Shown here: one piece after another, positions 43,697 to 63,330 of the stretch
Layout: every line of letters starts with the position of its first letter
How positions within the stretch are numbered: position 1 is the stretch's first letter
NCBI GenBank assembly: GCA_963823665.1
Contig: CAWGMQ010000005.1
Location: 992,001-1,056,000, forward strand
DNA: 64,000 nt
Direction of reading: 5' to 3'
Origin: an uncultured Planctomycetota bacterium
GTDB taxonomy: Bacteria > Planctomycetota > Planctomycetia > Isosphaerales > Isosphaeraceae
Program-made: the position numbers and the translations under genes
Notes under the pieces: model-generated
The model's database searches: none
Told to the model about the DNA's origin: nothing
The model's input: the letters and a program-made list of their open reading frames with translations, nothing else

Positions 43697-44044
43697 TCAC
43701 GTGCTCCCGGCATGTATACGAAGGCCGGGATGGGGATGGGCCGCTCGGAGGGGGTGGAAACCTATGCTCCAGGCGTGGCCCAACTCGAAGAAGTAGCCGA
43801 GGCATCGCACGAATTGGTCGAGATCATCCTGTAGTTTGATGCTCTCTGCATGATGGCTGTTCATGACGCGGTACAGCGCGCCCTCGAAGACCAGGACCAG
43901 GGCGGCGTCTGCCAGGTATTCCTCCTTCCGTGCGCTCCATTCGTCGCGTGTGTAAAACCGCGTGTCTCTGTCCAGTTCATGGTCGACCAGCCAGTCGTGG
44001 AGGCAGCGTTTGAGCGTCTCGATGGTTTGCTTTACGCGACTCAT
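43697..44044 (-). CDS. hypothetical protein; a truncated paralog lies at 63686-63870
   Basis: MSRVKQT...WLVDHELDRDTRFYTRDEW...; ATG overlaps the TGA of an upstream acidic ORF remnant. Confidence 0.6.
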   Translation of the reverse strand: MSRVKQTIETLKRCLHDWLVDHELDRDTRFYTRDEWSARKEEYLADAALVLVFEGALYRVMNSHHAESIKLQDDLDQFVRCLGYFFELGHAWSIGFHPLRAAHPHPGLRIHAGST

Positions 44045-44174
44045 ATCGTGGTGGCGCCGGTGGACTGGAGTTCCTGGAGCCATGCTTCGAGGTCTTCGTC
44101 GGTTCCCAGGTCATCGAGGATATCGAATGGGCCGTCCCACTCTTCGACTTCGACGTAGAAGTTTGGCTCGTCGC
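43861..44174. repeat. left copy of a diverged direct repeat of at least ~315 bp
   Basis: Colinear similarity to 63686-64000, e.g. identical TCCCACTCTTCGACTTCGACGTAGAAGTTTGGCTCGTCGC. Confidence 0.92.
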
Positions 44175-44780
44175 CTGGGACTTCGTGGTAGAAGTGGCAA
44201 TGCTCGGCGTTGTGGGCGGGGTGGATTCAGACGAGTCAAAGGCCTGTCACGTTTCCGCGGCGGTCGACGATCGCTTTTGAGGGGATGCCGAACTCGATTG
44301 TCTTGCTGCTGGGTGTTTTCGGCGGGGCTCGAGGCGGCTTCTGGCAATCGACGGTTCGTATTCACGAGCAAAGCCGGTTGTCACTGGGATCGCGTGCGGA
44401 TGAGCCGAGTTTACCATTGGATTGGCATACCAACATGACATCATTATCGGACGTGGCGGAAGGGTGAACTAAGTCCTTTCCGACCTTAATGTACGTGAGA
44501 GGCCGGCATGCAGACACCGCGAAGCGCTAGAAACCAAGCTTGACGCCGCGAAGCGCCGCGGTCCGGAATAACTCGAAGTAGAGTCGAGGTGTGACGCGGT
44601 GGTTTTAGGCTCGGCCTATCTGTGTCCGGCCCTTTCGTTTGCCGGTGCCTCACTAGCCTCGCCATGCTCCGTTTTCACACCCCGCTCATCAAACCGGGCG
44701 TGCAGTTTTCCCGCACCCGGCTTTCGGACAAGGCTGTACCCCATATACTGCTTCACACGTTCGCACACGAACGATTGCCG

Positions 44781-45755
44781 CTACGTTCTTTGGAGCTGAT
44801 AGAGTCTCAGCTTCTGGTGCAGATGTTGGTCATGGAAGCGTTTCTTGCCATCACCCTGTACCTTGAACTTCACGCACAACCACTGACGCACCCGATAGCG
44901 GACGTGGCTGTTGACGTTCCGGTAGGCTTTGCTGACCGTCCCGATGCGAAAGTAGTTGGACCAACCCTTTAACTTGCTGTTGATCCTCCCCACTTGCGCT
45001 TCGACGTCCCGCCCAGCCATCTTTCGCGTCGTCAGCTCACCAATCTCGCGGCAAATCCGCTCGATCTTCTTCCGCGACGGGCGAGGTCCCAGGTAGGAGT
45101 CGCCCGTCCGGCAGTCGTAGTTCCGGCTAAGGGTGTAACCCAGAAAATCGAACGACTCATCCGGCAGGCGGCACAATCGCGTTTTCGTCTCGTTCACCGT
45201 CAGCTTCAGCCTGGACATCATTCCCCGCATCGCGGTCATGGCCTCTTCGGCCGTGCCTCGGCAGCAGATGACGAAGTCGTCGGCGTAGTTAACGATTTTC
45301 GCGGCAAGACGCTGTTCATGCCCTCCCGTCTTCCACCCCTTCACAAATCGTCGCATGTAGATGTTGGACAACAACGGGGAAATTGGAGAGCCCTGCGGCG
45401 TTCCCATCTCCTGATCCCTATTCCGGGTCGTCCGATGGCGATTCCCATAGTCGTCTGTCTCTTCCACCGGTGTTTCCAGCCACATCTTGATCAGCCGCAG
45501 CATGCGGCTGTCGCTGATCCGACGGGACACCGATTTCATTAACTCCGCATGGGGAATGCTATCAAAGTACCCCGATAGGTCCGCGTCTACCACCTCGGTA
45601 TGCCCCGCTCTGAGCAGCCGTTCCACTTGGCGAACGGCGTCCAAGGCACTTCGTTCCGGGCGGTAGGCGTGTTGCTCCGGCTCCAAGTCGGCCTCGAAAA
45701 TCGGCTCCAAGACCAACACCGCAGCCATCTGTGCCACGCGATCTTTTATGCATGG
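44781..45755 (-). pseudogene. ltrA: group II intron reverse transcriptase/maturase, C-terminal part
   Basis: IKDRVAQ, DADLSGYFDSIPH, GTPQGSPISPLLSNIY, NYADDF, maturase GWSNYF; no endonuclease domain. Confidence 0.93.
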
Positions 45756-46105
45756 GATGCCCACAGCGCACTACCCCTTCATCCAGACCGCCTTCCGGAT
45801 TTGTTACCATCACCCATCCGCATCATCCGCTTCGGGGCCAGCGTGTTGAGATCATCCGAATTCGCCGAGGGAACGATCCTGACCTCATTGTCGTGACCCC
45901 TGACGGGCGTCACACCGCCATCGCCCTGAGCAGCACAGACTACTCTTCACCCGCCGAGCGTCCTCCCGCCGTGACGGCTGAGCACCTGCTCGACCTCGAT
46001 GGTTTGCGTCGCGTCGTCCAACTGCTCGATCGTCTAGCCCAACCGGAACTCGCGCCGTCAACCACTGGCGATCGCATCCAGACGAAATCGTCCGGACCGC
46101 GGTAG
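45752..46105 (+). CDS. small accessory ORF (DUF5372/Y4bD-like); its 5' end appears to lie at the opposite end of the element
   Basis: FVTITHPHHPLRGQ...PDG...STD...LLDLDGL pattern typical of recombinase-associated ORFs. Confidence 0.7.
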   Translation: MGCPQRTTPSSRPPSGFVTITHPHHPLRGQRVEIIRIRRGNDPDLIVVTPDGRHTAIALSSTDYSSPAERPPAVTAEHLLDLDGLRRVVQLLDRLAQPELAPSTTGDRIQTKSSGPR

Positions 46106-46157
46106 CATCACCCCACCAGCCCCGCACGTCGGGTTTCTGGATTAAGGAGATGCTTCT

Positions 46158-46442
46158 ATGAGCGTACGGATTGCGCACAAAGGGACCTCCGTCCCGCCCA
46201 CTCAGGTCTGGTCCGGTCTCACCGCAGAACGCCAGGCCCTTGTCATTCAGTTCCTGGCGCGTCTCGCGTCCAACCTCGTTACTGAAGATTCAATTCCAAC
46301 CCCCCGGAGCTCTGCCGATGATTCAGTCTCTTGCCCCAAAGATTCGGTCGGATCATCTCGACCGTCTAGCGCAGATCTACGTCCGCCAATCCACCATGAT
46401 TCAGGTGCGCGAAAACACCGCCAGCGGCGCCCGGCAATATGA
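46158..46442 (+). CDS. second small accessory ORF overlapping the recombinase start
   Basis: TAAGGAG RBS; VWSGLTAERQALVIQFLARLA amphipathic helix. Confidence 0.55.
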   Translation: MSVRIAHKGTSVPPTQVWSGLTAERQALVIQFLARLASNLVTEDSIPTPRSSADDSVSCPKDSVGSSRPSSADLRPPIHHDSGARKHRQRRPAI

Positions 46443-48416
46443 CCTGGCCAATCGCGCGGCGAACTGGGATGGCCCCTGGAGCGAATCCAGGTTATCGATC
46501 AAGATCAGGGGCACTCGGGAACGTCGTCGGCCGATCGCGACGGTTTTCAGCACCTGGTCGCGCAAGTTGGCCTGGGCCGGACCGGGGCTGTCTTGAGCCT
46601 CGAAGCCTCCCGCCTGGCACGATCTTGCAGTGATTGGTATCGTCTCATCGAGATTTGTGCCCTAACTAACACATTGGTCATCGACGAGGACGGGGTTTAC
46701 GACCCCACTCAATACTCCGACCGGCTTCTCCTGGGATTCCTGGGAACCATGAGCGAGGCCGAACTCCACTTGCTCCGTTGCCGCCTTCTGGGCGGCAAAT
46801 TGAAGAAGGCATCCGATGGCCAACTTCGGTTCCGGCCGCCTACGGGGCTGGTCTACGATCTTGAGCGCCGGATCGTTTTCGATTCCGACGAACAGGTCCA
46901 GCTGGCAGTCCGGCTGGTCTTCGATCTGTTCGACCAGTCGCCTTCGGCTTTGGCCGTCGTCAAACACTTCGCTGATCATCACCTCCAGTGCCCCACGCGG
47001 CTCTGGGGTGGCAGCCGACACGGTGAAGTCATTTGGAGACCGCTGAGCAATGGCCGTGTCCTGGACATCCTGCATAACCCCGAGTACGCGGGCGCCTATG
47101 TCAATGGCCGCACAAAGACTCGCCTTGTGTGCCTGCCTGGTGAAGAGCCGAGGGTTAAGGGCCGAACACGTCGAGTCCGGCCCGAGGACTGGCCATTCCT
47201 CATCCCCGGGCACCATCCCGGGTACATCACCTGGGATCAGTTCCAGCGGAACCAACAGCGGCTTGACGACAACCGGACGTTACCCGATCAAGATCGCCGT
47301 GGAGCGCTGCGAGAAGGCCTCGCCTTGCTCCAGGGAATCGTTCGGTGTGGACGATGCGGACGGCGGATGTCCGTCCGTTACCTCAATAATGCTTCAGTAC
47401 CATCATACGAGTGTAACTCATACCACACTCATTTCGCGGGCAAAACCTGCCAGTCGATCCGCGGTGATGGGGTCGACGCAGCGGTTGCGCGTGCCCTCCT
47501 GGAAGCCATGCGGCCAGCGCAGCTCGAGGTTTCGATGGCGGCCTTCGATCAGGTTGCGGCACAGGCACGCCAGCTCGATCGTCAATGGCAATTGACCCTG
47601 GAACGCGCTCGCTACGAGGCCGAGCTGGCCCGGCGCCGGTTCGTCTCCGTGGAACCGGAGAACCGATTGGTGGCTCGGACGCTGGAACGGGAGTGGAACG
47701 AAAGGTTAGCCGAGATCGAACGTATGGAACGAGATCAAACGCTCCGCCCTCAATTAGCCAGTCGGCTGGTCGATCCAGAGGAGCGATGCCGGGTGCTGGC
47801 ATTAGCTCAAGATCTCTCGAAAGTCTGGCATGCCCCGACAACGCCTCAGACGGCCCGCAAACAATTACTGGGATATTTGATCAAGGATGTGACTCTCTCT
47901 CGAGGAGAGACGCTAGTCCAAGTAGCCATCCGGTGGCAGACTGAGGCTTGCACCGAGCTCGAGGTTCCTCGCCCCAAGCGATCTTACGAGATGCGTCGGA
48001 CTGACCCGGTGGTCGTTGATCGGATCAAGGCCCTAGCGATGGAACACACCGACCGCCAGATCGCCGCGCTGCTGGATCAGGAGGGTTTCCGATCAGGCAC
48101 TGGAAGTCGATTTACTCGACACATCGTTGCACAACTTCGATATAGTTATTCAATTATGAGCTTATGTCCCGAGGCACCGGCGGCGTGCGCCGAGGTTTAC
48201 CGGGCGGATGGACGACGTTCCGCGAAGACCGCCGCGGAATTGCTCAACGTGAATGTGTCCACAATTGCGGAATGGTGCCAGTCGGGCACTCTGGATGGGA
48301 TCCAGTCCGCCCCTTACGCTCCATGGTGGATCAAGCTCACGCCGGGGATCATCGCTGGCTTGCGTAAGCCAACCCGGCGCACTTGGTCTCGGCGATCGGT
48401 TTCGTCAGAGAAATAG
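46318..48416 (+). CDS. large serine recombinase (resolvase, recombinase, zinc ribbon, HTH), 1-bp frameshift near 46460
   Basis: IYVRQS catalytic Ser, EASRLARS, LLQGIVRCGRCGRRM zinc ribbon, VEPENRLVARTLEREWN coiled coil. Confidence 0.92.
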
Positions 48417-48494
48417 GGCCCAGTATTGGGCGAGACCTTCTTCGATCAATCCCCAATGCCGTTGGAAAGAGGTGCAGTATGAACGACAGATCGG

Positions 48495-48818
48495 GATTCC
48501 GAGCGGCCTTTGCTTGCCATCCCCTTTCGGGATGAACACTCGCCGGACCGGCCGGGGACGATACGTTCCGTTCCTGAGTTCTTCCGTCAGTTCGTCCAAC
48601 CACTGGTCTCGTCCGTACTCCTCGATGTCCGCAAAGCTCTGGCGGTCGACCCCCGGAGCACCGCGATTATTGCGGCACCGGAAGAAGGCCCACTCCAAGA
48701 TGTCTCTGCGATGCACCTTGTCGTACAACGCGTAGAACCGATAGTCAGGCGAGTTCTTCGCTTTGGTGTGCAACGCCGTCTGTAACTTCCCAACCGTAAT
48801 TGGAGGTAATAGGCTCAC
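48495..48818 (-). pseudogene. ltrA: group II intron RT, N-terminal part
   Basis: AGGAG RBS with GTG start; RFYALYDKV, GAPGVD, YRPRPVRRVFIPKGDGKQRPLGIP. Confidence 0.93.
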
Positions 48819-49360
48819 GCCAATCTCCTGGATGTCAGTCGCGTATGACGTTGACCTTGAACCAAGGCCCCTTCCCTCCACCGACGTTACTCGGCTTCGC
48901 AGGTACTACGGACCTCTCCGCCACCCGATGCGGCCCGGCCTGTCCCTCACGGGCGTCCGGTTGAGGGTCACGCCCCTCACCGCATGGGTTTCCCGTGTTG
49001 CGTTAAAATCTCCGTTTACCGACATGCCGTCGTCATTACCCCGGTGGCCCGCTGGGCCTTGATCGCTCGTGGGACGGCCTATTCCAACCGTTTCCCTGTA
49101 CCCAGCGGCTGCGGCCTTCCCCATCCTATTGCAAGGTCGGCGTCCACATTGGTCGTTTCGAGGCCTGCTCAACGTTCACTGGCTATTACGGCCTGTCGGC
49201 TCGCCGAGTCGCCTAGAGCGACCCGTCTGTCTCGAAGGCTCCGACGGTTTCGTTTCCTCCCCTCGTCGCTTCGATAGCTACCGGCTGGAGCGACCCAGAT
49301 GCCGGGTGGGATTTGCACCCACTGAAGACCAACACCTTCAACACGGCGCACAATAGGTCT

Positions 49361-49502: not shown

Positions 49503-52500
49503 TTACGAATTGTTGGAAATGTATAGCGCAATGAAATCCTTGAGAATATCAGCCAGGTGACCAATATCTACTCCAAATTTCATGAGGGGGATTGTGACAG
49601 CGGTGAACGTTCCCTTCAGCTTCTGCGCGTCTCTGAACACAACTGCCACTTGCGCTTTCAGCGTGTCGATCTCCACAACTGCCACGCTGTTACTAAAGGT
49701 CATGCTTATGGTCCGATGGCCGGCAACCTCGGTTGCGCTCAGGAGAAGGTCTTGGGTAAGTCTTGCGAGATTCAGCCCGACGTCGGCGATAGTGACCAAG
49801 TCACTTGAGGTAGAGATCAGATTTAAACCCAGCTGAATCAAACGATTCCCCTTGTTGTAGAACTGAAATCCCTCGTCGTCACCCCGTGCGATCAAGTCGA
49901 GCCCGGTATAGCGCCATTTGAAGCCAGGAATGACCACATACTGGATCAACGTCTGAGCGATGGCGAGCGTGAGCAATTCTGGCCCAGCAGTTTGAGCGAC
50001 GCTGATGGTCGATTGGATCGTCAGCTCCACGGCGAGTTCGGCTAGGCTCGCCTGCCTCCCCGAGGGATCGACGAGATTGACGGGGTCGCCGTCCGCGTAG
50101 GCGTAGCTATTGGAGAAAATCCGGACTAGGCTGGCACCGTGGAGTGGGTCCACGCTCAAAAACCGCCCTGTTGCCGGGTCAAGGTAGCGAGCCCGTAAAT
50201 CGTCGAGGCCGGTCGTTTGGTCCTGGTACTCACCTTCGAACAAGTAACGTGTCACCGCGTTCCCCGAGTGCGCCAGGGTGTTACCGAACGCGTCATATAC
50301 ATAGCCGCCGATCACCTTCCCAGACGAATCGGTCAGCGCTCGTGTGCTGCCAAGTCCGTCGACTAAGAGGATCGTTCGCGCACCGCCCACTACCTGCGAA
50401 ATCGGTCCCGTGCCGATTCCGAAGACGGCCGAGGACGAGATCTGACCGCCGGGCGTGTACTCCTCGACGACCTGGGCGTAGGGAAGATTCGTATCGACGA
50501 GCTTGTTGGTCGTCTGGCCGTCGACTGTGGATTGAACGAGGTTACCATCGGCGTCGTAGCGATTGACCTCCTCTTGCGTCCCCGTGGAATTGGTGACCTT
50601 GGCGTCAATCAATTGGTTCTGAGAGTCCCATTCGTAGAGAACCTGATCGGTGGCGCTCGTGATCTGCGAGAGCGTGTTGCCGTTGTTGTCGTAGGTGTAC
50701 TTCGTGGTCTGGCTGCCGGTGGTCGAAGTTAGGAGGCGGTCGTTGGCGTCGTACGTGTAGTCCGTCGTGCCCTGGGTTGAGTCGACCATGGTCAGGCGGT
50801 TGCCGACGGGATCATAGGTATAGGATATGTCCTGGTTGCCGTTAACCGGGTCGGTGATGATCTCCTCGATTAAGCGGTCAAGGGCGTCGTAGTTGTACTG
50901 GTCGGTGCGGCCGTTGGCCTCGACGACGGAGTCGGTGCGGCCGTTGGCGGCTAGCGTGTACTTGTAACTGGCGATCACGCCGCTCGGGCCGTCGTCTTCG
51001 AGGTAGACCAAGCGGTTGAGCGAGTCGTACTGGCGGATCTCGGACGTATTGTTGGGGAACTGCGTCTTGACCAGGTTGCCGGCGGCATCATAGGTGTAGG
51101 TCGTCACTCCGCCCTGGGGGTCGGTCACGGTGGCCATCCGACCGAGGGCGTCGAAGGTGTAGGTCGTCGTGCCGGCCGGGATGGTGATGGAAGTGCGGTC
51201 GCCAGCGGCGTCGTAGGTGTACGTGATCGAGGTGCCGTCGGGGTCGGTCTTGGACAGGAGGCGGTCTAGGGCATCGTAGGTATAGGTTGTGGTTCCCCAG
51301 CCCGGCACCGTGTCGCTGGCTCGCTGGCCGGTCGCGGTGTAGGTGAAGGTCTCGGTGGTCCCGTCGGGCAGGTTCTCGGCGGTGAGCCGGCCGATCACGT
51401 CGTACTGGTAGGTGATCGTCGCCCCGTTGAAATCGGTCGTGCTCGCGACGTTGCCGTTGGCGTCGTACGTTGTCGTCGACTTCTGGCCCATTGGCAGGAT
51501 CGTGGCGATCTTCTGGCCCAGGCCGTCGTACTCATAGGTGGTCGTATGGCCGTTGGCGTCGGTCTGGGAGATCAGGTCGCCGGCCTCATCGTAGGCGTAC
51601 GAGGTCGTCTGGCCCAGGGCATCGACGACAGCCGTCAGATGGCCCAGTGCGTCGTACTGATCGTGCGTGGTCCGGCCAAGCTGGTCGGTCTCGGCAATCC
51701 CGCGGCCGACGGCGTCGTACGTGGTCGACGTGGTCGTGCCGTCGGCGTAGATCGTCTCGATGAGCTGCCCCGCGGCGTCGTAGACCGATTTTGTGGTGTG
51801 GCCCAACGGATCGGTGGTGGCGACGGCGTTCCCGGCGGCGTCGTACGCCGTGCTGGTCACATCGCCCAGGGCGTCGGTGACGGAGACCTGGCGTCCGTCG
51901 GCGTCATAGGCGAAGGTCGTCTTGTTGCCCAGCTCGTCGATCTGCGCGGTGACCTCGCCGTCGGCGTCGTAGACCGTGCTCGTGGACGTGCCGTCGGGGT
52001 TGATGGTCTTGACCAGTCGGCCCAGTGCATCGTACTGCATCGTTGTGACCCGACCCTCTTGATCGATCTGCGCGATCACGTTCCCGGCGGCGTCATATTC
52101 CGTCTTGGTCGAGGTTCCGTCAGGGTAGTCGGTCTCGATCAGCTCACCGCGCGCGTCATAGAGGTACTTCGTCACGTTTCCGAGCGCGTCAGTGTCGGAG
52201 ATCTTCAGGCCGTCGGCGTTAAACTGCGAGCTGGTGGTGTGCCCGTCGGCGTCGGTGACGGAAATCACGTTGCCATTGGCATCGTAGACCGTCTTTGTCA
52301 CCAGCGTCTGCACGCCGGAAGGAGTCGTGAGCAAGGAGGTCGAGGTGATCGGGTTGCCGCTGGAATCGTAGGTGGTCGTGGTGGTGTGGCCCAGGGCGTC
52401 GGTCGTGCTGATTACCTGGCCCTGGGAATCGTACTGAAACGCCGTGGTGTCGCCGATGGCGTCGGTGAGCGTGATCGGATTGCCCGAGATGTCGTAGGTC

Positions 52501-55500
52501 AGTTTGGTGACATCGCCGAGCGGGTCGGTGGTCGACAGCAGGTTGCCCTTGGCGTCGTAGGCGTTGGTCGTGGTGTTGCCCAGCGGATCGCTGGTGGTGA
52601 GGACATCGCCGTAGGCGCCATAGGTGCTTCGAGTGACGTTGCCCATCGGATCGGTGGTGGTCAAGGCGTTGCCCGAGGCGTCGTAGGTGTAGGTCGTCGT
52701 GCGGCCGAGCGGGTCGGTCTGGGAGAGCAGGTTGTTGTTGGCGTCATAGGTGCTCGTGGTCACGCCGCCGAGGGCATCGATCTCGGTGAGGATGTTGCCC
52801 TGCGCGTCATACTCGTACGTCGTCGGATTGCCCAGGGCGTCCGTGACCGTCTCGCTCGAGTCAGTCGGATCGTAAGCCATGTCGACGGTCTTGCCGGCGG
52901 CGTCGACGAGGCCGATCAGACGGCCTTGATCGTCGTAGAGAGTCTTGACTCCGGTGCGGCCCAGCGGGTCGATCACATCCTGAAGATAATGGGCGAAGTC
53001 CGTGCTGTAGTCGAACGTCGTCACGTTTCCAGCGAGATCCGTCACCGCAACGAGGTCGCCGGCGGCGTCGTAGGTGTAGTGGATCGTGTTGCCCGAGGGA
53101 TCGATGACGGATGTGATCCGGCCCTCGGGATCGCGCTCGAATGTGACCTTCTCGCCGGAGGTGCTGGTGATGCCGCTGGGAGAAAACGTCAGCGCGTCGC
53201 CGTTGCGATCGGCGACGGTATCCAGCATGCCCGTCTGCCCGTTAATCGTGTAGACGATGCCGTCTTTGGTGGTCAACGTGTAGGTCCCGCCGAAGGAGGG
53301 GCTGGCCGGGTTGTAGGGCAGGTCGCCGTTAAAGTCGGAATACGTGCCGTCGTCGTTCTGGCGCAGGTCGAACTGGGTGACGCTGAGGGTGTCGGTCACG
53401 CCTGGATCGGCGGTGAAGCTCGGATTCATGATGCCGAGGAAGCCCGACGCGAAGCCCGGCGAGAGTTGAGGAGTGAACGTGAACCCCTCGCGCTGGCCGC
53501 CCGGCAACGTCACGTAAACGCGCGTGCCGTTCTGGAACGCGCTAAAGATGCCCTCGGATTCCTGGCCGGTTGTGGGCACGCTCGTCTGGAGGTTGGTGTC
53601 GCCGAACTCGAGCTGCCAGCCGTAGCCGAAGTCCTCGCTCGTGCCGGCGTTCAGCGTGTCGTAGGTCCTTGTAACGGTGATCGGGATGCCCGAGACGGGG
53701 ACGGTCAGGTCGGTGAACGACAGGGTGAAGTTACCTAGCTTGAGATTGCCGGCAACGCTGATCTCTTGATCAACGGTCGACGTGTGGTTGCCCGTGTTCG
53801 TCGCGGTCAGGCGCAGGTCGTAAGTGTCGTTGGCCAGCAGGGTCGGGTCGAAGGTGCCGAGCAGGGCGTTGTTGACGGGCGTGGTGCCGCCGGCAATGTG
53901 CTTGACCTGGACGCCGTCGAGGGTGTAGACGTCGAGCGACCACGAGGCCAGGTGCTGGTCGGCGACTGTTCCGGTCACGTCGGTGAACGTCGTGACCGTC
54001 GCACCGTCGGTGGGCGAGGCGATCGCGACGTTGGGCGCACCGGTGACGCTAGGGTCGAACACCACGAGCGAGGCCGTCGCCTTGGCGGTGTTGCCGGCGA
54101 GGTCGGACGCGGTCGCCAGCACGTTGAGGCTTCCGGCCTGGGTGACCTTCAGTGTCGCCGTTCCGTTCGCATCCAGTACTCGGATCGTCCCGCCCACGGT
54201 CAGGACCTCGGACGTGACGCCGACATTGTCGGACGCCAGAACCTGGAAGGTGACCATGTCGCCCAGCTTGGCAGGGTTTTCGCTCATCTCAAGCTGGACG
54301 CGCGGCGCCTGGGTGTCGGCCGAGACCATGATGGCGTAGGTTTGGGTGACCGAGAGGCCAAGGCCGTCGTCCACCTCGACCTGGACGTGCGCCGAGCCGA
54401 CGTTGGACGGGGCCGTGGCCCAGGTGATTCGCCCCAGCGAGTCGACGGCCATGCCGCTCGGCCCGGCCACGATCTGGTAACTGAGCGGGGTGTTGTCCGG
54501 GTCGCTCGCCTGCACGTCGTAGTGATAGGTCAGCCCCGCGGTCACGGCGGTGACCGGGCTCGAGGTGATCAACGGCGGCGCGGGAACCGGCTCAACATCA
54601 ATGACGAACCGCTGCGAGGCGGTCGCGCCCGAGGGATCAGCGGCCGCGACCGTAACCGTCTGATCGCCAAGTTGCGCGGTGGTCGGTGTCCACGAGACCA
54701 GGCCGCTGGCGGCGACAATTGCCATTCCAGCGGGTGGAGCGAGCAGGGAATACGTCAGGGTCGCACCGGAGGGATCGGTGGCCGTGACGGCATAGCTGTA
54801 GCCCGTGCCCACGATCGCGCGGTCGGACGGGGTCGACGTGATCACCGGCGGCAGGCTGGACGTGGACGTGGAGGCGACGACGGTGAAGCTCTGGGACGTC
54901 GAACCACCCAGGCTGTCGGCCACCAGGACCGAGACGTTCTGCGGGCCGGCCTGGCCCGAAGTCGGGGTCCAGAGGATCAGGCCCGTTACCGGGTCGATGG
55001 TCATGCCGGAGGGCTTCGTGGGCAGGGTGAATGTGAGCGGATTGTTCAGGGTGTCGACGGTTTGCACCGCGTAGGCGTAGGACGAACCGACTGTCGCATC
55101 GGTGGGCGGCGTCGAGATGATCTGTGGTGGAATGTCCGCGGCGAAGATGGCGACGGAGAAGCTCTGGCTGTCGCTCCCTCCTTCCGCGTCGACCACGCGG
55201 ACGGTGACCGCCTGGGGACCGACCTGGGAGGCGACGGGAGTCCAGCGGATCGTCCCTAGCGCCTGGTCGATCGACATTCCGGCAGGTGCGGTATCCAGGA
55301 ACCAATAGAGCGGATCGCTCTGGGGATCAACGGCGGTCGCGTTGTAGCTAAACGGGCGGCCCACGACGTCGAAGAGCGGGGGCGAAGAGGTGATCGACGG
55401 CGGCTGGCTGGTGACGCTGGCCGAGACGGTGATCGCCACGTCCTGGGTTGCGACGCCGCCCCGGCCATCGTTCACCGAAATCGCGACGGCGTTTTGCCCG

Positions 55501-58500
55501 AGCTGGGCCTGCGTGGGGTTCCAGGTAACCAGGCCGCTGGCGCTTATGGTCATGCCCGCGGGCGCGGTGGTGAGCGAATAGGTGATGGGGTCGCCGTCGG
55601 GATCGGTGGCCTGGACGGCGTAGAGATAGGTGCGCCCCAGGCCGATCGTATCGCGGGGCGTGGAGCTGATGACGGGTGGTCGATTGGCGGAGGCGGCCAC
55701 GACGGGCAGGTTGAACGACTGGTCAGCGCCGCCGCCCTGACCGTCGGTGACCACGACATCAACCGGCGCGGTCCCGACCTGCGCCACCGTTGGGGTCCAG
55801 GTCACGAGGCCACTCGACGGGTCGATCGTCATGCCGACCGGGTTCGTGGCGAGTGAGTAGGTGAGCGGGTCGTCGTCGGCATCCTGGGCGAGCACCTGGT
55901 ACTGGTATGGGTACCCCGCCGTGGCGGGACCGAGCGGCGTGGAGGTGATCACGGGAGGGCGGTCTGCCGCGGCGACCGTCAGCGTGAAGGACTGGAGCGC
56001 CACGCCCCCGTTGCTGTCCCGGACGCGGAGAATGGCATCGGCCTGGCCTGTCTGCGAGTCGTCCGGGGTCCAGACGACCTCGCCGGTTGTGGGGTCGACG
56101 GCCATCCCCGCCGGCGCGACGGGCAGGTCGAAGGTAAGTGGGCTGCCCGTGGGGTCGACGGCTGTGGCGTTATACTCATATGTCGATTCGGCGACGGCCT
56201 GTGTGGAGGGCGTGCTCGTGAACCAGGGAGATGGGGGGCCCTGCGGCGTCGAAGTTGGCGTGACCGAGAAGTCGTTGTCCGTGGAGGACTGGCCGGCAGC
56301 GAGGGTGTCGGTAAAATACGGGGTTGTCGTCGTGCCTGGCAAGAGCGCCAGGTCGGCGTTGCCGCCAAATCCGCTCGGGAAGGCGATCGACCCGATCCAG
56401 GTGGCCGCGGCCGTTGTCTTGTTGACACGGTACAGGTCGGAGACACCGGAGCCGTCGATTCCCGAGGCAGCGTACAGGACGCCCTGTGAGTCGATCGCGA
56501 GATTTGCTCCGCTCGGGAACGTCGGGTACGACCCGCCATTGCCGGCGAGATGACCGATCACGGTCGTCGTAAGGTCAGTCAGATCGATCTTGAGTAGTGT
56601 TCCATCAAGGGAAGCGCCGTAGAGTGTGCCGTCGGTGTCGAACGCCAGGTCGGCCCCCAAGTGGCCGGTGTTGAGAACTAAGGTGGCTGCAGCGGTCTCG
56701 GGGTTCACACGCCACAAGTCCCCATTGACAAAGCCCCAGGAGTAAAGAAAGCCGTCCGGGCCAAAAGTCAGCGAGTTTTGGTCCGACGCACCGAAGAATC
56801 CGATGAACTGGGTCGAGCCCGTCGCCAGATCAATCGAGTAGAGCGATGTGGTGGAACCGATGGTGGTTCCGTAGCCCAGGCCGTTTTTGGGGTCGATGGC
56901 GATGCTCTCGATGGATCCGACGGTCCCGACTTCCTCCGCAACCGGGGATGTCTGAAAGTTGTTTATAGCGTAGAGCACGGTCGAGCCCGTCTGCTGGACG
57001 AGGGACACCCCGTAAAGAGCGTCCGGTGTCACCGCTGCCACCGGAGAAGCCTGCTGCCATCCCTGGGGCGGAACTTCGGCCACGGTATAGTTGCCCGGCG
57101 CCAGTCCGGTGAAGGCATAGTCTCCCTGGGGGTTGGTCGTTGCGGTCGGGTCGCCCGGGTCGAGCTTACCGTCGTGATTCTGGTCGAGGAACACGGTCCA
57201 GCCGGCCAGCGGCTCGTTGTCGGTCGAGCGCGTGACCGTGCCGGTGATCGAGCCGGGAAGCGGCTGGTCGGTGAAATTGTTTCCGGTGGAGGTCTGGCCG
57301 GCGGCGAGGGTGACGGTGTAGAAGGAGGTTGTTGTGCTTCCCGGCAAGAGCGCCAGGTCGCCAGTGCCGCCGAATCCGTTCGGGAAGGCGATCGAGCCGA
57401 TCCAGGTCGCCGCGGCGGTCGTCTTGTCAACCCGGTACAGATCCGCGAGTGGGGAGCCCTCAATGCTCGCGACGGCGTACATCACGCCCTGGGAGTCGAT
57501 GATGAGGCCCGGAGCGTAATACCCTTGGGCGAGCAGCCCTTGGTCACTGGTAAGCGTGCCAACCACCGTGCTCGTGAGGTTAGTCAGATCGAACCTCAGT
57601 AGCGACCCGTCGTACGAGATCCCATAGAGTGTCCCATCCGTGTCGAAGGCAAGGTCGGCCCCCCAGTGACCGGTGTCGAGAACGAAGGTGGCCGCACCGG
57701 TCACGGGGTTCACACGATACAAGTTGTCAAAAATGCCGTAGCCCCAGGAGTAAAGATAGCCGTCGGGGCCAAACGCGAGTGAGTTCTGGTCGGCGATGCC
57801 CGGCGTACCGATGAGCGTCGTCGCACCTGTCGCCGGGTCAATCGAGTAGACCGAGGTGGTTGGGGAATCGATGGTGGTCCCATAAAGCCCGCCGGTCGCG
57901 GGGTCGCCGGCGAGACTCCAGATCGATCCGACCGGGCCGATTTCCTCGGCGACGGGCGCCGTCTGGAAGTTGTCGATGGTGTAGAGCACGTGCGACGAGC
58001 CTTGTTGAAACTGCGACACCCCGTAGAGTGTATCCGGAGTCCGCCCCGCCACCGGAGAAGCCTGCTGCCAACCCTGGGGCGGGACCTCGGCCACGGGGTA
58101 GGTGCCCGGGGCCAGGCCCGTGAACGTGTAATCTCCCTGGGCGTTGGTGACGGTCGAGACTTCGCCAGGGTCGAGAATTCCGTTCTGGTTCGTGTCGAGG
58201 AAGACGGTCACGCCGGCCAGGCCGGTCGATGTGCCCGCCAGCGTGATCACTCCCTGGATCTCGCCGGGGGTGCCTTGCGCGGCGTTGATCGTGTAGCTCT
58301 GGGTGTCGAAACCGCCGCGGCCGTCGTCAACGCGGACGGTGATCGGGATCGCCAGGTGGCCAATCTCCAGGGTGGGAGGGTTCAAACCCTCCTTGCTCGA
58401 AAACCGGACCTGCTGATCGGTTGACTGGTACTGCGGCACGCTCTCATATGCCAGCGCAAGCGTGAGGTAACCGCTCGCGATGTCGGGCTGCAGGTCGTAG

Positions 58501-61500
58501 CCGCTGAAGTCGAAGACGACGTCCTGGCCTGCTTGCGTTGGGGTCGCCTGGGCCAGCAGGTCCTGGCTCTTGTTCAGATCCGCGAGGAACGCGTCGCCGA
58601 AATTGGCACCGGTGATTCCGGTCATGGGGTCGGGGCTCGGGTTGATCGTTCCGAACGGGCTGAAGACGCCGGTTCCCTGCGCCCAGTTGTTGTCGGCCAC
58701 GTGATAGAGGCCGATCGTGCTGGAGCCGCTCACGATCGTGGTGTGAATAACAAGCTGAAGTGACGTGACCGGCCAGGTCACACCGGAGAGATTGAAGCGG
58801 AGGAACGAAAAGTCGATCGCCGAATTGAGCGGGTCGTTTCCACCCGGCTCGTCGCCGGCGAACACCTCGAGAAAAGGCGAATCGCCGCCGTTTTCTTCGA
58901 GGCGACTGGCCGGCTCGGTCAGAACGATCGAATCGTCGGTTGGCTCCAGGTTCACTACGCTCTGTTCGCTCGCGGTCACCGTCCCCTGTACCAGGCCCGA
59001 GGATGGGTCGATGCTGAAGTTCGAGGGAGCGGTCACAAGAGAATAGGTCAGTGGGTCGTTGTCGGGGTCGAGTGCCTTGACTGCGTAATCGTACGGAGTC
59101 GATTGCGGCTGGAGGAGGAGCTGAGTCACCGGCGTGCTGATGATCGTCGGGGGATGATCTCCCAGCGCCGCTGTTGCGATTACCGCAAAAGATTGGGTTG
59201 CCGTACCTCCCTTCCCGTCCGTCACCGAGAGTTCGACGCCGGAAGAGCCGGTCTGGCTCGAGGATGGCGTCCAGGTCACCAGGCCTGTCGTGGGATCGAC
59301 GGCCATTCCCGAAGGGCCTGAAATCACCGCGAAGGTGAGCGGGTCGTCGTCGGGATCGGAAGCCGTGGCCTGATAGATGTACGGTGCGCTCACACTTGCC
59401 GAAACAATCGGCGTGGACGTGAAGACCGGGGGCCGGTCCGGCGGCGGGTTGATCACCGAGAGGGTGAAATCTTGCTCCGCTGAGCCTCCGTGCCCATCGT
59501 CGACGAGGAGGGCGATGGCGGCGTTGCCCACGTCGGCGCTAGCGGGCGACCATGTGACCGTTCCGCTGGCCGCGCCCACAGTCATGCCGGAGGGGCCGGA
59601 AAGCAGCGAGAACGTCAGGGGATCGTTGTCCGGGTCGGCGGCCGTTGCGTCGTAGACGTAAGCGCTGCCGGCGACCGCCTGCACCTTCGGGGTCGATGTG
59701 AACTGGGGCGGGCGGTTGAGCTCCGCGAGGAAGACCAGGTCGTAGGTGAACGGGATGCCGTTCGGGTCGTCGAACGCGACGGTCCGGGAATCGGTCGTTT
59801 CCCCCGCTCCGAGTTTTCCGCCCGGCACCAGGGCACTCAGGTCGAAGTAGGGCAAGCCGTCCGGCGTGGTTCCGTCGGCGCCAGCGACGCGCACCGAGGG
59901 ATCGCTGATATGGTCGATCGCCACGATCAGGGGGGCGTCCATAAAGTACTGGCCGGCATTCCGGGCCGCAACATCGGCATACAGCACGCTGTCTTGCTGG
60001 TCGAACGATGACCGTCCGTAGACGGGCTGGACACTGGCCGAGACGTCGCTCAGGGCGGCGAAGTCGATGGGCGCGCCAGGCTGCGCCGGGGACGCGGCGG
60101 GTTGGCCGCCCGGGTCGACCGGCTGACCCAAGAGTGGCGCCACTTGCACATCGCCGACATCAACCGATGTATTCACGTCGCCGTCGTTGTTCACCAGCCG
60201 GAAGACGAGCGAGGCGACCGTTCCTGGTGTGACGTTCGAGACATCGAGCGTAACCTTCTGCCCGTTCTGCGTGGCCCAGGCGCCAAGCTCCGCAGGCTGG
60301 CCTTCCGAGACGTTCAGGAAGGCGTCGCGGCTGGCGGCGAAGGTCGGTACGAGGGAGTTTCCCGAGGCGTCTACCAGGGCCACCTCGAAGGCGTCCTTTA
60401 CCCGACCCTGGCTGGTCGTGTCGAAATCCAGGTCACTGTAGTCGAAGCTCAGGGTCGACGCCTGCGGCGGGATGGTGATCGGCTGCGACAGGGTGACGTC
60501 GAACGAGTCTCCCTCGCGCAGCGTGGCGTCACAACCGCTGATCGTCACGCTCCCCATGCCGGTATTTGATCCGCCGCTTTGAGCGACAACGGCGTTGCCG
60601 AACCCCATGCAGGTGTCGAGGGTGAACGCGAAATCAGAGGGCGCCGAGACGTTGCCCGCGCGATCGGTGGCAAGGAAGTGGACGGTGTGCGGGCCGTCGT
60701 CCGTGCCGTCCAGCGCCAGGCTGCTCGTCAGGCTGAAGTTGCCGGCAGCGTCGAGTGACAGAGGAGCGAAAGCGCCGCCGTCGAGCGCCCATTCCGCACT
60801 AGCCACGCCCGAGAGCGCATCGGCCACGTGGCCCGTGATCGTGATGTTCTGGGTCGTGGTCAGTCCGGGCGGCGGGCTGGTCACGGTCACCGCCGGCGGG
60901 GTGGAATCCAGGGTGAAGGCGAAGTTGGTGACGGGCGAGACATTGCCCACGAAGTCGGTCGAGACCAGGTGGACGGTGTGGCTGCCGTCGGCGGAATGGT
61001 CGAGGGGCAGACTGGTCGTAAGGCTGAAATTGCCGGCGGTGTCGAACGATACCGGGGTGTAGGCACCGCCGTCGACCGCCTCCTGGAGCGATGCCACCCC
61101 GGTGAGATTGTCCAAAACGCGGCCGACGAGGGTGGGGTTGCTGTTCGTGATTAGCCCCTGGGCAGGGGACGTGATCGTCACGGACGGTGCCTGCGTGTCC
61201 AGAACGATTCCGATCGCGGCCGTCTGCTGCTGGCCGAACGAGTCGGTGGCCCTCACCTGGAGGTTGTTGGCGCCGGGCGTGAGCGCGACGCTGAACGAAA
61301 ACAACCCCGAGGAATTCGCGGTGGTCGAGCCCTCGTCGAACTGTCCATCGCTGCCGGTTCCGAGCGCCACGGCGGCGCCGGGGTTGGTCGTGCCGTTCAA
61401 GGTGATTGCGGCGGTCGCGGTGGCCAGGCTACCGGAGGGCAACGTCACCAGGCCCGGCGGCGTCTGCAAGGAGAGCGCCAGAGGAGTGACGCTCGTCGCA

Positions 61501-62102
61501 TCGTTCAGGTTGTAACGCCACTGGGTGTAGTCGAACGAGGAAATCATGCCATCGAGGTTGCTATCTGCCGCCACTATGTAGCGGCCGTCCCCGGCGACCG
61601 ACCCGATCAGCGAGCGGATCAAGGATCCATCCGCCAGGTTGATCTGGTGGTTGCCATCGGCGTCGCCCGCGAGGAATACATTGAGCTGGAAGGCCCCCGA
61701 AGTGCCCCGGTCTCCGCCCACGGCAAGGTTGTAGCTGCCGTAAGTCAGCGAGGCCAGGATCAAGCTCTGCGTGGTGCCGCCCAGGTTGGCGTTCACGTAG
61801 GTCGGCGTGACAGTCGCGCCCGAGGAGGTAGTGATCGTGACGGCGGCTGGATCGAGGGAACTCCCGGTCGGTGCCTGAACCTCGAAGCCGATCACGGCCT
61901 GGCTGCCAGGGAGGGTGAAGTTGGATTTAGAGATGGTTATGGGTATGCGCTGCACGCTGCCTGCGGCCGGGACCGCGCCTTCGAACTGCGCGAAGATGTT
62001 GGACGCATCCAGCAGCGTGCGGTCCTCGAGACGCTCGAAGGAAATGCGGGCCCTGCGGGCGGGATGGCGCAGGGGTCTGGCAGGGCGCTTGGGGTCTCGC
62101 AT
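49503..62102 (-). CDS. giant 4199-aa Rhs/YD-repeat surface protein: LEPRxLL-type N-terminus, dockerin-like domain, Ig/cadherin-like repeats, SdrD-B and propeller modules, Rhs core, ~185-aa C-terminal domain
   Basis: FERLEDRTLL; GDADGNHQINLAD...ADSNLDGMISSFD; repeated PP.ITSTP...Y.Y...A.DPD.DPLTYSL; VFLD.N.NG.LDPGE; RARYLDPATGRFLSVDP...PVNLVDPSG. Confidence 0.95.
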   Translation of the reverse strand: MRDPKRPARPLRHPARRARISFERLEDRTLLDASNIFAQFEGAVPAAGSVQRIPITISKSNFTLPGSQAVIGFEVQAPTGSSLDPAAVTITTSSGATVTPTYVNANLGGTTQSLILASLTYGSYNLAVGGDRGTSGAFQLNVFLAGDADGNHQINLADGSLIRSLIGSVAGDGRYIVAADSNLDGMISSFDYTQWRYNLNDATSVTPLALSLQTPPGLVTLPSGSLATATAAITLNGTTNPGAAVALGTGSDGQFDEGSTTANSSGLFSFSVALTPGANNLQVRATDSFGQQQTAAIGIVLDTQAPSVTITSPAQGLITNSNPTLVGRVLDNLTGVASLQEAVDGGAYTPVSFDTAGNFSLTTSLPLDHSADGSHTVHLVSTDFVGNVSPVTNFAFTLDSTPPAVTVTSPPPGLTTTQNITITGHVADALSGVASAEWALDGGAFAPLSLDAAGNFSLTSSLALDGTDDGPHTVHFLATDRAGNVSAPSDFAFTLDTCMGFGNAVVAQSGGSNTGMGSVTISGCDATLREGDSFDVTLSQPITIPPQASTLSFDYSDLDFDTTSQGRVKDAFEVALVDASGNSLVPTFAASRDAFLNVSEGQPAELGAWATQNGQKVTLDVSNVTPGTVASLVFRLVNNDGDVNTSVDVGDVQVAPLLGQPVDPGGQPAASPAQPGAPIDFAALSDVSASVQPVYGRSSFDQQDSVLYADVAARNAGQYFMDAPLIVAIDHISDPSVRVAGADGTTPDGLPYFDLSALVPGGKLGAGETTDSRTVAFDDPNGIPFTYDLVFLAELNRPPQFTSTPKVQAVAGSAYVYDATAADPDNDPLTFSLLSGPSGMTVGAASGTVTWSPASADVGNAAIALLVDDGHGGSAEQDFTLSVINPPPDRPPVFTSTPIVSASVSAPYIYQATASDPDDDPLTFAVISGPSGMAVDPTTGLVTWTPSSSQTGSSGVELSVTDGKGGTATQSFAVIATAALGDHPPTIISTPVTQLLLQPQSTPYDYAVKALDPDNDPLTYSLVTAPSNFSIDPSSGLVQGTVTASEQSVVNLEPTDDSIVLTEPASRLEENGGDSPFLEVFAGDEPGGNDPLNSAIDFSFLRFNLSGVTWPVTSLQLVIHTTIVSGSSTIGLYHVADNNWAQGTGVFSPFGTINPSPDPMTGITGANFGDAFLADLNKSQDLLAQATPTQAGQDVVFDFSGYDLQPDIASGYLTLALAYESVPQYQSTDQQVRFSSKEGLNPPTLEIGHLAIPITVRVDDGRGGFDTQSYTINAAQGTPGEIQGVITLAGTSTGLAGVTVFLDTNQNGILDPGEVSTVTNAQGDYTFTGLAPGTYPVAEVPPQGWQQASPVAGRTPDTLYGVSQFQQGSSHVLYTIDNFQTAPVAEEIGPVGSIWSLAGDPATGGLYGTTIDSPTTSVYSIDPATGATTLIGTPGIADQNSLAFGPDGYLYSWGYGIFDNLYRVNPVTGAATFVLDTGHWGADLAFDTDGTLYGISYDGSLLRFDLTNLTSTVVGTLTSDQGLLAQGYYAPGLIIDSQGVMYAVASIEGSPLADLYRVDKTTAAATWIGSIAFPNGFGGTGDLALLPGSTTTSFYTVTLAAGQTSTGNNFTDQPLPGSITGTVTRSTDNEPLAGWTVFLDQNHDGKLDPGDPTATTNPQGDYAFTGLAPGNYTVAEVPPQGWQQASPVAAVTPDALYGVSLVQQTGSTVLYAINNFQTSPVAEEVGTVGSIESIAIDPKNGLGYGTTIGSTTSLYSIDLATGSTQFIGFFGASDQNSLTFGPDGFLYSWGFVNGDLWRVNPETAAATLVLNTGHLGADLAFDTDGTLYGASLDGTLLKIDLTDLTTTVIGHLAGNGGSYPTFPSGANLAIDSQGVLYAASGIDGSGVSDLYRVNKTTAAATWIGSIAFPSGFGGNADLALLPGTTTTPYFTDTLAAGQSSTDNDFSVTPTSTPQGPPSPWFTSTPSTQAVAESTYEYNATAVDPTGSPLTFDLPVAPAGMAVDPTTGEVVWTPDDSQTGQADAILRVRDSNGGVALQSFTLTVAAADRPPVITSTPLGPATAGYPYQYQVLAQDADDDPLTYSLATNPVGMTIDPSSGLVTWTPTVAQVGTAPVDVVVTDGQGGGADQSFNLPVVAASANRPPVISSTPRDTIGLGRTYLYAVQATDPDGDPITYSLTTAPAGMTISASGLVTWNPTQAQLGQNAVAISVNDGRGGVATQDVAITVSASVTSQPPSITSSPPLFDVVGRPFSYNATAVDPQSDPLYWFLDTAPAGMSIDQALGTIRWTPVASQVGPQAVTVRVVDAEGGSDSQSFSVAIFAADIPPQIISTPPTDATVGSSYAYAVQTVDTLNNPLTFTLPTKPSGMTIDPVTGLILWTPTSGQAGPQNVSVLVADSLGGSTSQSFTVVASTSTSSLPPVITSTPSDRAIVGTGYSYAVTATDPSGATLTYSLLAPPAGMAIVAASGLVSWTPTTAQLGDQTVTVAAADPSGATASQRFVIDVEPVPAPPLITSSPVTAVTAGLTYHYDVQASDPDNTPLSYQIVAGPSGMAVDSLGRITWATAPSNVGSAHVQVEVDDGLGLSVTQTYAIMVSADTQAPRVQLEMSENPAKLGDMVTFQVLASDNVGVTSEVLTVGGTIRVLDANGTATLKVTQAGSLNVLATASDLAGNTAKATASLVVFDPSVTGAPNVAIASPTDGATVTTFTDVTGTVADQHLASWSLDVYTLDGVQVKHIAGGTTPVNNALLGTFDPTLLANDTYDLRLTATNTGNHTSTVDQEISVAGNLKLGNFTLSFTDLTVPVSGIPITVTRTYDTLNAGTSEDFGYGWQLEFGDTNLQTSVPTTGQESEGIFSAFQNGTRVYVTLPGGQREGFTFTPQLSPGFASGFLGIMNPSFTADPGVTDTLSVTQFDLRQNDDGTYSDFNGDLPYNPASPSFGGTYTLTTKDGIVYTINGQTGMLDTVADRNGDALTFSPSGITSTSGEKVTFERDPEGRITSVIDPSGNTIHYTYDAAGDLVAVTDLAGNVTTFDYSTDFAHYLQDVIDPLGRTGVKTLYDDQGRLIGLVDAAGKTVDMAYDPTDSSETVTDALGNPTTYEYDAQGNILTEIDALGGVTTSTYDANNNLLSQTDPLGRTTTYTYDASGNALTTTDPMGNVTRSTYGAYGDVLTTSDPLGNTTTNAYDAKGNLLSTTDPLGDVTKLTYDISGNPITLTDAIGDTTAFQYDSQGQVISTTDALGHTTTTTYDSSGNPITSTSLLTTPSGVQTLVTKTVYDANGNVISVTDADGHTTSSQFNADGLKISDTDALGNVTKYLYDARGELIETDYPDGTSTKTEYDAAGNVIAQIDQEGRVTTMQYDALGRLVKTINPDGTSTSTVYDADGEVTAQIDELGNKTTFAYDADGRQVSVTDALGDVTSTAYDAAGNAVATTDPLGHTTKSVYDAAGQLIETIYADGTTTSTTYDAVGRGIAETDQLGRTTHDQYDALGHLTAVVDALGQTTSYAYDEAGDLISQTDANGHTTTYEYDGLGQKIATILPMGQKSTTTYDANGNVASTTDFNGATITYQYDVIGRLTAENLPDGTTETFTYTATGQRASDTVPGWGTTTYTYDALDRLLSKTDPDGTSITYTYDAAGDRTSITIPAGTTTYTFDALGRMATVTDPQGGVTTYTYDAAGNLVKTQFPNNTSEIRQYDSLNRLVYLEDDGPSGVIASYKYTLAANGRTDSVVEANGRTDQYNYDALDRLIEEIITDPVNGNQDISYTYDPVGNRLTMVDSTQGTTDYTYDANDRLLTSTTGSQTTKYTYDNNGNTLSQITSATDQVLYEWDSQNQLIDAKVTNSTGTQEEVNRYDADGNLVQSTVDGQTTNKLVDTNLPYAQVVEEYTPGGQISSSAVFGIGTGPISQVVGGARTILLVDGLGSTRALTDSSGKVIGGYVYDAFGNTLAHSGNAVTRYLFEGEYQDQTTGLDDLRARYLDPATGRFLSVDPLHGASLVRIFSNSYAYADGDPVNLVDPSGRQASLAELAVELTIQSTISVAQTAGPELLTLAIAQTLIQYVVIPGFKWRYTGLDLIARGDDEGFQFYNKGNRLIQLGLNLISTSSDLVTIADVGLNLARLTQDLLLSATEVAGHRTISMTFSNSVAVVEIDTLKAQVAVVFRDAQKLKGTFTAVTIPLMKFGVDIGHLADILKDFIALYISNNS

Positions 62103-62892: not shown

Positions 62893-62914
62893 CGAGGTGA
62901 ACCTTATCTGGATG

Positions 62915-63330
62915 ACCGAAATGCTCCTGGACAATGAGCGGCACGTCGTTGATGTCAACTTGCTGAATCACCCTGGGCACGATCGTCGGCATGGGTTGCA
63001 AGTCATGTCCGCACGCGGGGCGGAGACCGAGGCGATGGTCGAGCGAGTTGTCGTTGATCAATTCAGGTGCGCAGGCGGCGGGTTCGGGCTTGGGGTGACG
63101 TGGCTGCCTGAAAGTGCGGCGTTTCTTCCGGCCCTTCGGCGATGCCGGTTCGAGAGGCTTGACGAAGCCGGAGGACGGCGGCTTGGACGAGGTCGAGGAA
63201 TGTTTCCTCGCAACGGCGAATTGTTCCTGGAGACGGGTGACGGTGGCCTCGAGCGCCAGCGCCCGCGACCGCGCGTCTTGGGAATCCAGCTTCCCCTGCG
63301 AGTGTCGCATATTCGGCCAAGGCTTCCGTG
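62915..63330 (-). pseudogene. IS66-family transposase N-terminal remnant
   Basis: Coiled coil then HSSTSSKPPSS, RQPRH, degenerate CxxCG (RPACGHDL), QQVDI...VQEH; no DDE domain follows. Confidence 0.7.

Follow-up and report, generated by a model that had tools for sequence, protein, structure and literature searches.

In mycobacteriophage BPs the integrase is a tyrosine recombinase, and in the transposons Tn4451 and Tn4453 a promoter is formed at the joint of the circle. Integration of BPs trims a C-terminal degradation tag from the repressor, and the integrated form is the active one (PMC4557955). The splitting of the archaeal "suicidal" integrases has been likened in a review to directionality control (PMC8371274). 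For the Tn4451-type transposons, which are moved by a large serine recombinase (LSR), the accessible text of PMC5704250 and PMC3158075 describes no gene built across the circle joint. Known directionality factors (RDFs) bind the junction between DBD2 and the coiled coil of the LSR (PMC12286644; bioRxiv 2024.08.21.608926), and the Discussion of PMC12286644 treats as an open question what decides between excision and integration in LSR transposons that lack a classical RDF.

Here, we describe an LSR element located in a window of 64,000 nucleotides (the whole stretch of DNA analysed), in which a small gene appears to be completed only when the two ends of the element are joined. Judged from the sequences, this arrangement is real and conserved. 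A literature search outside subscription papers and supplements found no description of such an end-joined gene arrangement.

Element and its host intron

The element is 2,739 bp long, lies on the plus strand, and carries ORF1 (DUF5372), ORF2, and an LSR gene. It is inserted in the RT gene of a group II intron, which occupies 44578..49353 on the minus strand, with its 5′ end near 49353 and domain V-VI near 44578-44725. The intron has Rfam matches to RF02003 (49181-49324) and RF00029 (44578-44725), its ends were read from the sequence, and locus L045 aligns to 44578-49351, corresponding to the intron extent. The 3′ part of the RT/maturase gene, beyond the insertion, is at 44781..45755 on the minus strand (TIGR04416, E = 2e-81; RVT_1 and GIIM), and the 5′ part, which extends to the Pro codon of the LGIP motif, is at 48493..48830 on the same strand, where the upstream limit is approximate. 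Removal of the element in silico restored a single open RT frame through the LGIP motif, and empty-site joints are present in contigs of two of four public runs (X2 and X3). The source genome contains no second copy of the element or of its intron.

The body of ORF1 (45758..46105, plus strand) comprises 115 codons with no start of its own and ends with the stop codon at 46103-46105. It belongs to DUF5372, the Y4bD/Y4pK family, according to PF17342 (E = 8e-10) and RefSeq names. ORF2 (46158..46442, plus strand) encodes a small protein with no family among the Pfam and NCBIfam profile matches; it has a strong Shine-Dalgarno (SD) sequence of its own (anti-SD pairing, -9.2 kcal/mol), and its ATG is located approximately 52 nt past the ORF1 stop in 11 of 12 clade members. 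The LSR gene (46318..48416, plus strand) has matches to Resolvase (partial), Recombinase, Zn-ribbon, and HTH_17 domains, including PF00239 (partial, owing to a frameshift), PF07508, and PF13408. The frame jumps near 46458 in this copy, where contigs of runs X3 and X4 have one extra base, suggesting that the LSR of this copy is damaged or mis-sequenced. No replication gene was seen on the element in the ORF list and profile matches, and no mobilisation gene was matched by Pfam or NCBIfam among the only three genes in 2,739 bp. No sigma-70-like promoter was found within 45600-48600 in the integrated form, a search to be read with the caveat that planctomycete promoters may differ.

Other features of the window were also noted. 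A minus-strand ORF of 4,199 aa at 49503-62102 has repeated Ig-like and YD/Rhs-like units and a variable C-terminus by eye. Two similar minus-strand ORFs (43697-44083 and 63364-63966) flank the region containing the intron and the giant ORF, which suggests a local duplication, and a transposase-like fragment was recognised by eye at 62828-63532.

Joined frame and crossover

The earlier note had proposed that an RBS and ATG at the element's right end read in frame into ORF1 once the ends are joined, and that attP lies inside this gene. Joining 48494 to 45756 confirmed the first point, because ATG 48479 is then in frame with the DUF5372 ORF and opens a frame of 121 aa. The second was supported, with the cut falling in codons 5-6, at the N-terminus. 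An SD-like 9-mer at 48466..48474 on the plus strand (-7.1 kcal/mol) is separated by 4 nt from the ATG at 48479-48481. The start codon and the 11-nt spacer of the right att arm (48479..48492, plus strand) provide the first codons of joined ORF1, followed by the right crossover dinucleotide GG (attR core) at 48493..48494 on the plus strand, which was placed by multi-copy boundaries. At the other end, the left crossover dinucleotide GG (attL core) is at 45754..45755 on the plus strand, where homologue alignments begin and after which the bases are element-specific. The left att arm (45756..45772, plus strand), an 11-nt spacer and 6-nt outer motif mirroring the right arm, corresponds to codons 6-11 of joined ORF1, and ATG 48479 itself belongs to an inverted repeat common to the left end. 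Neither this repeat nor the LSR frameshift near 46458 appears in the earlier note.

The crossover is the 2-nt GG, since in L021, L024, L025, L026, and L041 the two junctions, left and right, do not carry the same bases past GG. A 5-nt repeat was considered as the crossover core and rejected because the junction bases diverge right after GG in close homologues.

Conservation of the att geometry

LSR relatives were collected from 78 loci of genome contigs, genome samples of four phyla and of the host family, multi-copy records, and 10 plasmid regions. The collection contains 253 full-length LSR records, and an upstream ORF1 match was found in 194. A DNA identity threshold of 96% divides these into 158 clusters, and an LSR identity threshold of 70% into 97 groups; the groups still share descent, and P values are therefore optimistic. 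Named carriers include Planctomycetota, alpha- and betaproteobacteria, Actinomycetota, Chloroflexota, Acidobacteriota, and Nostoc; Singulisphaera sp. GP187 and Microvirga lotononidis are among the cultured ones. No confident call was obtained for the right arm in 40 of the 97 groups and for the left arm in 66, and the inspected cases often had a short flank or a divergent arm.

Both ends of the family elements share a mirrored motif of six outer bases, 11 nt, and a 2-nt core. The last three outer bases of the right arm are the start codon, and the outer bases of the left arm encode a His-Thr-like pair near the start of the ORF1 body. The layout of start codon, 11 nt, and 2-nt core recurs in several phyla. 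Frame conservation across homologous elements, which the earlier note had named as a check, was clear: of the 31 groups with a left-arm call, 30 have ORF1 reading in frame with the left end, as do 23 of the 25 groups having matching cores. The two core-matched groups that are out of frame, L207 and L236, have ORF1 at the locus edge, with left ends outside the fetched DNA. Among the 22 groups with calls at both ends, 15 have identical left and right cores. Boundaries between copies, determined blind to the ATG and read by eye, fall at start + 11 + core in 9 of 17 multi-copy clusters; four further clusters overshoot in conserved targets, which is consistent, two are uninformative, and two are not simply accommodated by the layout (L241/L249 and L277/L293). 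Boundaries in the L065 cluster belong to a larger carrier element and were set aside. The distance to the conserved core is not fixed and changes in whole codons.

The core dinucleotides differ between ends or between copies of one element in L135/L139/L143 and L096/L174, indicating that codons 5-6 at the junction change with the most recent target. In one L096 copy, the joined frame would carry a TGA stop across the junction. The L031 element (3167 and 5906), which has an uninterrupted LSR, is inserted at the same RT LGIP site in the opposite orientation and reads GG at each junction in place of the CC expected from the host gene, while L125 is oriented as L031 and has a CC core. These observations suggest integration across a mismatched core. 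Flanks of the L016-L305 loci, inspected by eye, show insertions in conserved motifs of other mobile-element genes, often antisense; we take these targets to be group II RTs, IstB Walker A motifs, other LSRs, tyrosine recombinases, and integrase cores. A close relative, L026, has an additional insertion of approximately 2 kb (5037-7068) within its LSR gene. L005, L007, L126, and L127 are members with four genes, the additional one being a helix-turn-helix gene, and in these the stop codon of the LSR overlaps the start codon at the junction.

Start codon and recombinase motif

Binding by DBD2 is expected in the part of the att site beyond its inner 12 bp (PMC12286644, Fig. 5 legend). The start triplet is located in this expected DBD2 zone, and the roles of start codon and binding motif can both hold. 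The triplet, which was masked in arm scoring, is ATG, GTG, or TTG in 50 of 57 groups. Among the seven non-start right arms, two, L054 and L055, are out of register by 3 nt and carry an ATG together with matching cores, and clusters L050 and L052 show the same 3-nt shift by eye; in L304/L305 the triplet is not a start and an ATG is found in frame one codon further in. In core-matched, in-frame groups, a start is present in 22 of 23 right arms versus 13 of 23 mirrored left arms (Fisher P = 0.004), and host arms used as a control carry a start triplet in 0 of 21 and 0 of 22 cases. Median anti-SD pairing energies in 29 groups are -7.7 (right), -3.2 (mirror), and -2.5 (host) kcal/mol, and values of -5 kcal/mol or lower are reached in 23, 6, and 4 of these 29 groups, respectively; the arm-scoring matrix covered the SD region and favours right arms having an SD.

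No stop codon occurs in 232 junction codons, versus 8-9 in shuffles, and the right spacer alone has 1 stop in 228 codons (the exception being L096), versus 9.8 in shuffles. The mirror control is also stop-poor (2 of 124 versus 4.6), and the difference between right and mirror is not significant (Fisher P = 0.28). The left arm mirrors the start triplet, meaning that part of its conservation needs no translation. These last results would fit an alternative, quite unlikely in our judgement, in which conservation of the ATG and of the purine-rich stretch reflects only their role as the binding motif of the recombinase, and ORF1 is translated from host or internal starts with an inherited frame. 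The symmetry of the att arms, the start-like mirror triplet, and the stop test favour it. Against it, the start codon and SD are asymmetric, stronger on the right than on the left, and the frame is held while the distance to the conserved core shifts by whole codons, even after loss of the barrel domain described below. Translation of ORF1 gated by end joining is very probable on the sequence evidence, and its start codon may well serve as a binding motif at the same time.

Other starts in the integrated state

In the integrated form of this copy, a host-derived, in-frame ATG at attL (45752..45754, plus strand, antisense of the RT gene), a host GTG at 45731, and three internal starts are available to ORF1, all without an SD. 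Anti-SD pairing is +0.3 kcal/mol for ATG 45752 and +0.7 kcal/mol for GTG 45731. The earlier description of the integrated copy as having only the host ATG 45752, with no evident RBS, thus holds to the extent that no usable start is present. Across the family, 72 distinct attL junctions were compared: in 41 a stop is met before any host start, and the other 31 have some in-frame host start, with an SD of -5 kcal/mol or lower at 10 of the 72. The claim that ORF1 is made only from the circle is compatible with this copy and is too strict for the family in view of these host starts; a tandem dimer would also build a complete ORF1.

An internal ORF1 start with a fair SD before the helix was found in 11 of 29 groups, versus 19 and 9 for the other two frames. 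In 18 of 150 public proteins, the called start is one codon outside that of the junction. In the collected loci, this outer start is host-derived, from the antisense strand of IstB-type targets, and its SD is mostly weak. RefSeq calls ORF1 from starts other than the junction start, and leaky expression of ORF1 from some insertions is possible. Host starts at 31 of the 72 attL junctions and the RefSeq calls would suit an ORF1 read from elsewhere in the integrated state, whereas no internal or host start is conserved, and none in this copy has an SD.

Joined ends in public data

Contig L117, in which an integrated element continues past its right end into 99 bp belonging to its own left end, has a GG core and a GTG in frame. 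It is one of 25 metagenome matches to a pattern that demanded the start and spacing and not the ORF1 frame; the other 24 had no ORF1 or LSR match and were dropped. Junction-length ORF1 was found in 4 of 150 public proteins. One of them, P0036, matches the product predicted for the joined ends of L220/L221 at all 30 residues compared, where four integrated copies differ. Each junction-length protein occurs on one contig, and two such contigs, of 2,719 and 2,729 bp, are within the range of element lengths. The joined ends in L117 and P0036 may represent a circle, a tandem dimer, or an assembly path. No circle joint of this copy was among the 15 joints listed of 31 in contigs of public runs; the runs contain less than half of the sequence words and are uninformative on habitat. 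Viral contigs gave no match to the junction pattern and no LSR relative.

ORF1 protein and its predicted complex with the LSR

The AlphaFold2 model of ORF1, built from 131 sequences, consists of a four-stranded barrel and one C-terminal helix (mean pLDDT 80.6, pTM 0.51). It resembles SH3/KOW domains, with a best VIA-align Z score of 5.8 (NusG KOW, rmsd 2.0, 49 residues). A NusG-like function was considered and not inferred, since the barrel is a common small fold. ORF1 had 0 of 32 matches in PHROGs and a best E value of 0.17 against PDB sequences, and Foldseek searches of the model against PDB and viral structures gave nothing at E ≤ 0.001. An Atlas search with ORF1 retrieved DUF5372 clusters and unnamed clusters. 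DUF5372 has 6,268 cluster representatives at E ≤ 0.001, and the literature search found no publication naming it.

Complex prediction of ORF1 with residues 75-470 of the LSR from the 46593 ORF gave a score of 0.72, and the best of three controls gave 0.00. In a calibration, the 0.72 mark was reached by 116 of 157 solved pairs and 2 of 215 mismatched pairs. The runs have at least 72% of their contacts in common, with a partner pLDDT of at least 66. The best predicted contacts are between the ORF1 helix (77-90) and LSR residues 421-429 and 448-450, and the contacted ranges of the LSR are 251-258, 305-321, and 391-454 (including 391-411). We read this region as the coiled-coil base plus the latter half of DBD2, and its borders beyond the Pfam Zn-ribbon (245-302) are inferred. 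Published AlphaFold pulldown on LSRs gave 4 false positives among 11 test cases (PMC12286644). From these models, the C-terminal helix of ORF1 probably docks on the LSR at the coiled-coil base. The earlier suggestion of a candidate directionality factor or regulator gains support, as to a role at the recombinase, from this predicted complex.

Of the 30 elements without a full ORF1 match, nine score at least 8 bits against the part of the profile that covers the helix, a mark reached by 0 of 1,800 shuffles. Among 17 junction translations, 10 are frames of 109-118 aa in which the helix is kept and the barrel is absent. These represent a short-ORF1 sub-lineage (L008, L009, L242, L272, L274, L275, L288, L294, L295, and L298), in which the barrel is deleted in frame, and the junction start and helix are retained. 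A distant element of the short-ORF1 type, L018, is also present in the source genome (G000:C3 near 127000-129000). In L294, L295, and L298, the short ORF1 frame seems by eye to enter ORF2-like sequence. The N-terminal codons of ORF1 vary non-synonymously within the clade, and ORF1 has conserved residues.

These features bear on an improbable alternative in which the act of translation outweighs the protein: ribosomes starting at the junction would cross ORF1 and raise expression of ORF2 and the LSR on the circle. The ORF1 start on the circle is at most 21 nt past the LSR stop or overlaps it in 36 of 50 groups, the short ORF1 appears to run into ORF2-like sequence in the three members named above, and the N-terminal codons vary, all of which would suit such coupling. 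The LSR stop overlaps the junction start as ATGA or GTGA in 10 of the 50 groups, which is weak evidence for the junction start because the TGA may be no more than the end of an extended LSR frame. Coupling is disfavoured by the strong SD of ORF2 itself, approximately 52 nt past the ORF1 stop, and by the conserved residues, confident fold, and predicted LSR interface of ORF1.

Discussion

We propose a mechanism in which an IS-sized element is moved by its LSR through a circle with a 2-bp crossover. attP would lie inside ORF1, with the right arm's outer motif serving also as SD and start codon and the left arm supplying the codons that follow. In the integrated state, ORF2 and the LSR would have their own starts and ORF1 none, integration having cut the latter off from its initiation signal. 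Once a circle or a tandem dimer joins the ends, ORF1 would lie directly downstream of the LSR and regain the SD and start codon, and its product is predicted to bind the LSR. ORF1 would then act as a state-dependent cofactor, through which the LSR would sense that it is on the free circle. Overall, a circle-gated cofactor of the LSR, more likely for re-integration than for excision, is a rather likely description of ORF1.

Which way ORF1 turns the LSR is a more tentative matter, receiving about half of the confidence that we place in the binding. Toward integration is the most likely direction, opposite in sign to phage RDFs, because a circle without a replication gene must integrate to persist. 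With the same gating and binding, ORF1 could instead have the ordinary sign of an RDF or be an inhibitor, blocking re-integration, damping the LSR, or excising other copies as copy-number feedback. The RDFs described in PMC12286644 and bioRxiv 2024.08.21.608926 all bind the same LSR region and favour excision, and the predicted interface is compatible with either sign. We nevertheless consider this unlikely, as excision could not be started by a factor that is unavailable to the integrated element, and a circle that has no replication gene would be lost if integration were blocked. If a pro-integration cofactor is accepted, the family would possibly, though not probably in every part, be a widespread group of IS-sized serine-recombinase elements with an inverse directionality factor: a small protein made only on the circle, reduced in some members to a single helix, with its SD and start in the right-arm recombinase motif, which binds the base of the coiled coil and licenses integration.

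Such a mechanism would give DUF5372 a testable function and explain its erratic annotated starts. It would be a recombination-state switch on translation initiation, with one motif for recombinase binding and for the SD and start codon. The three-gene element makes the choice between excision and integration without a classical RDF accessible to testing. If the cofactor favours integration, it would be relevant to LSR genome-editing tools, and members tried without ORF1 might look inactive.

Comparison with known systems

The multi-targeting LSRs of Durrant et al. resemble this family in that one LSR family uses several target gene families with a core dinucleotide (PMC10083194). They differ in DUF4368, which is found in 63% of that clade (PMC10083194) and absent here among six Pfam matches at E ≤ 0.1. 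The supplementary att tables of PMC10083194 may include members of the ORF1-LSR element family.

Tn4451/Tn4453 and related elements, with the recombinase TnpX, have an LSR, a 2-bp crossover, and relaxed targets in common with the present element, and they move through a circular intermediate, which is probable here. In contrast, they carry genes for mobilisation and resistance, and TnpX is active in the absence of an RDF (PMC5704250, PMC3158075). The archaeal SSV1, pTN3, and pT26-2 integrases are similar in that a recombination gene is split by integration and whole on the free element; there, however, the integrase itself is split, and it is an archaeal tyrosine recombinase (PMC8371274). In contrast to the SSV type, the LSR gene here (46318-48416) lies wholly between the cores, and the accessory gene loses only its initiation region.

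The earlier note had drawn an analogy with phages in which attP is within the repressor gene. The geometry of this analogy stands, and in BPs, too, attP within an element gene makes the protein depend on the integration state. The analogy does not extend to the product: here the SD and first codons are lost on integration, the free form is the complete one, and the protein is a non-HTH SH3/KOW-like barrel with a helix. As in LSR RDFs, a small partner is predicted at the coiled-coil base and DBD2 (PMC12286644; bioRxiv 2024.08.21.608926; bioRxiv 2025.01.03.631226), although ORF1 has no sequence match to phage families or solved structures. An intact gene in the integrated state belongs to the RDF type, as do activation of attL x attR and inhibition of attP x attB; here, this copy lacks a start with an SD, and 41 of 72 attL junctions are without a host start. 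RDFs, as described in these sources, act on the integrated state and trigger excision, whereas ORF1 is complete only once the ends of the element are joined.
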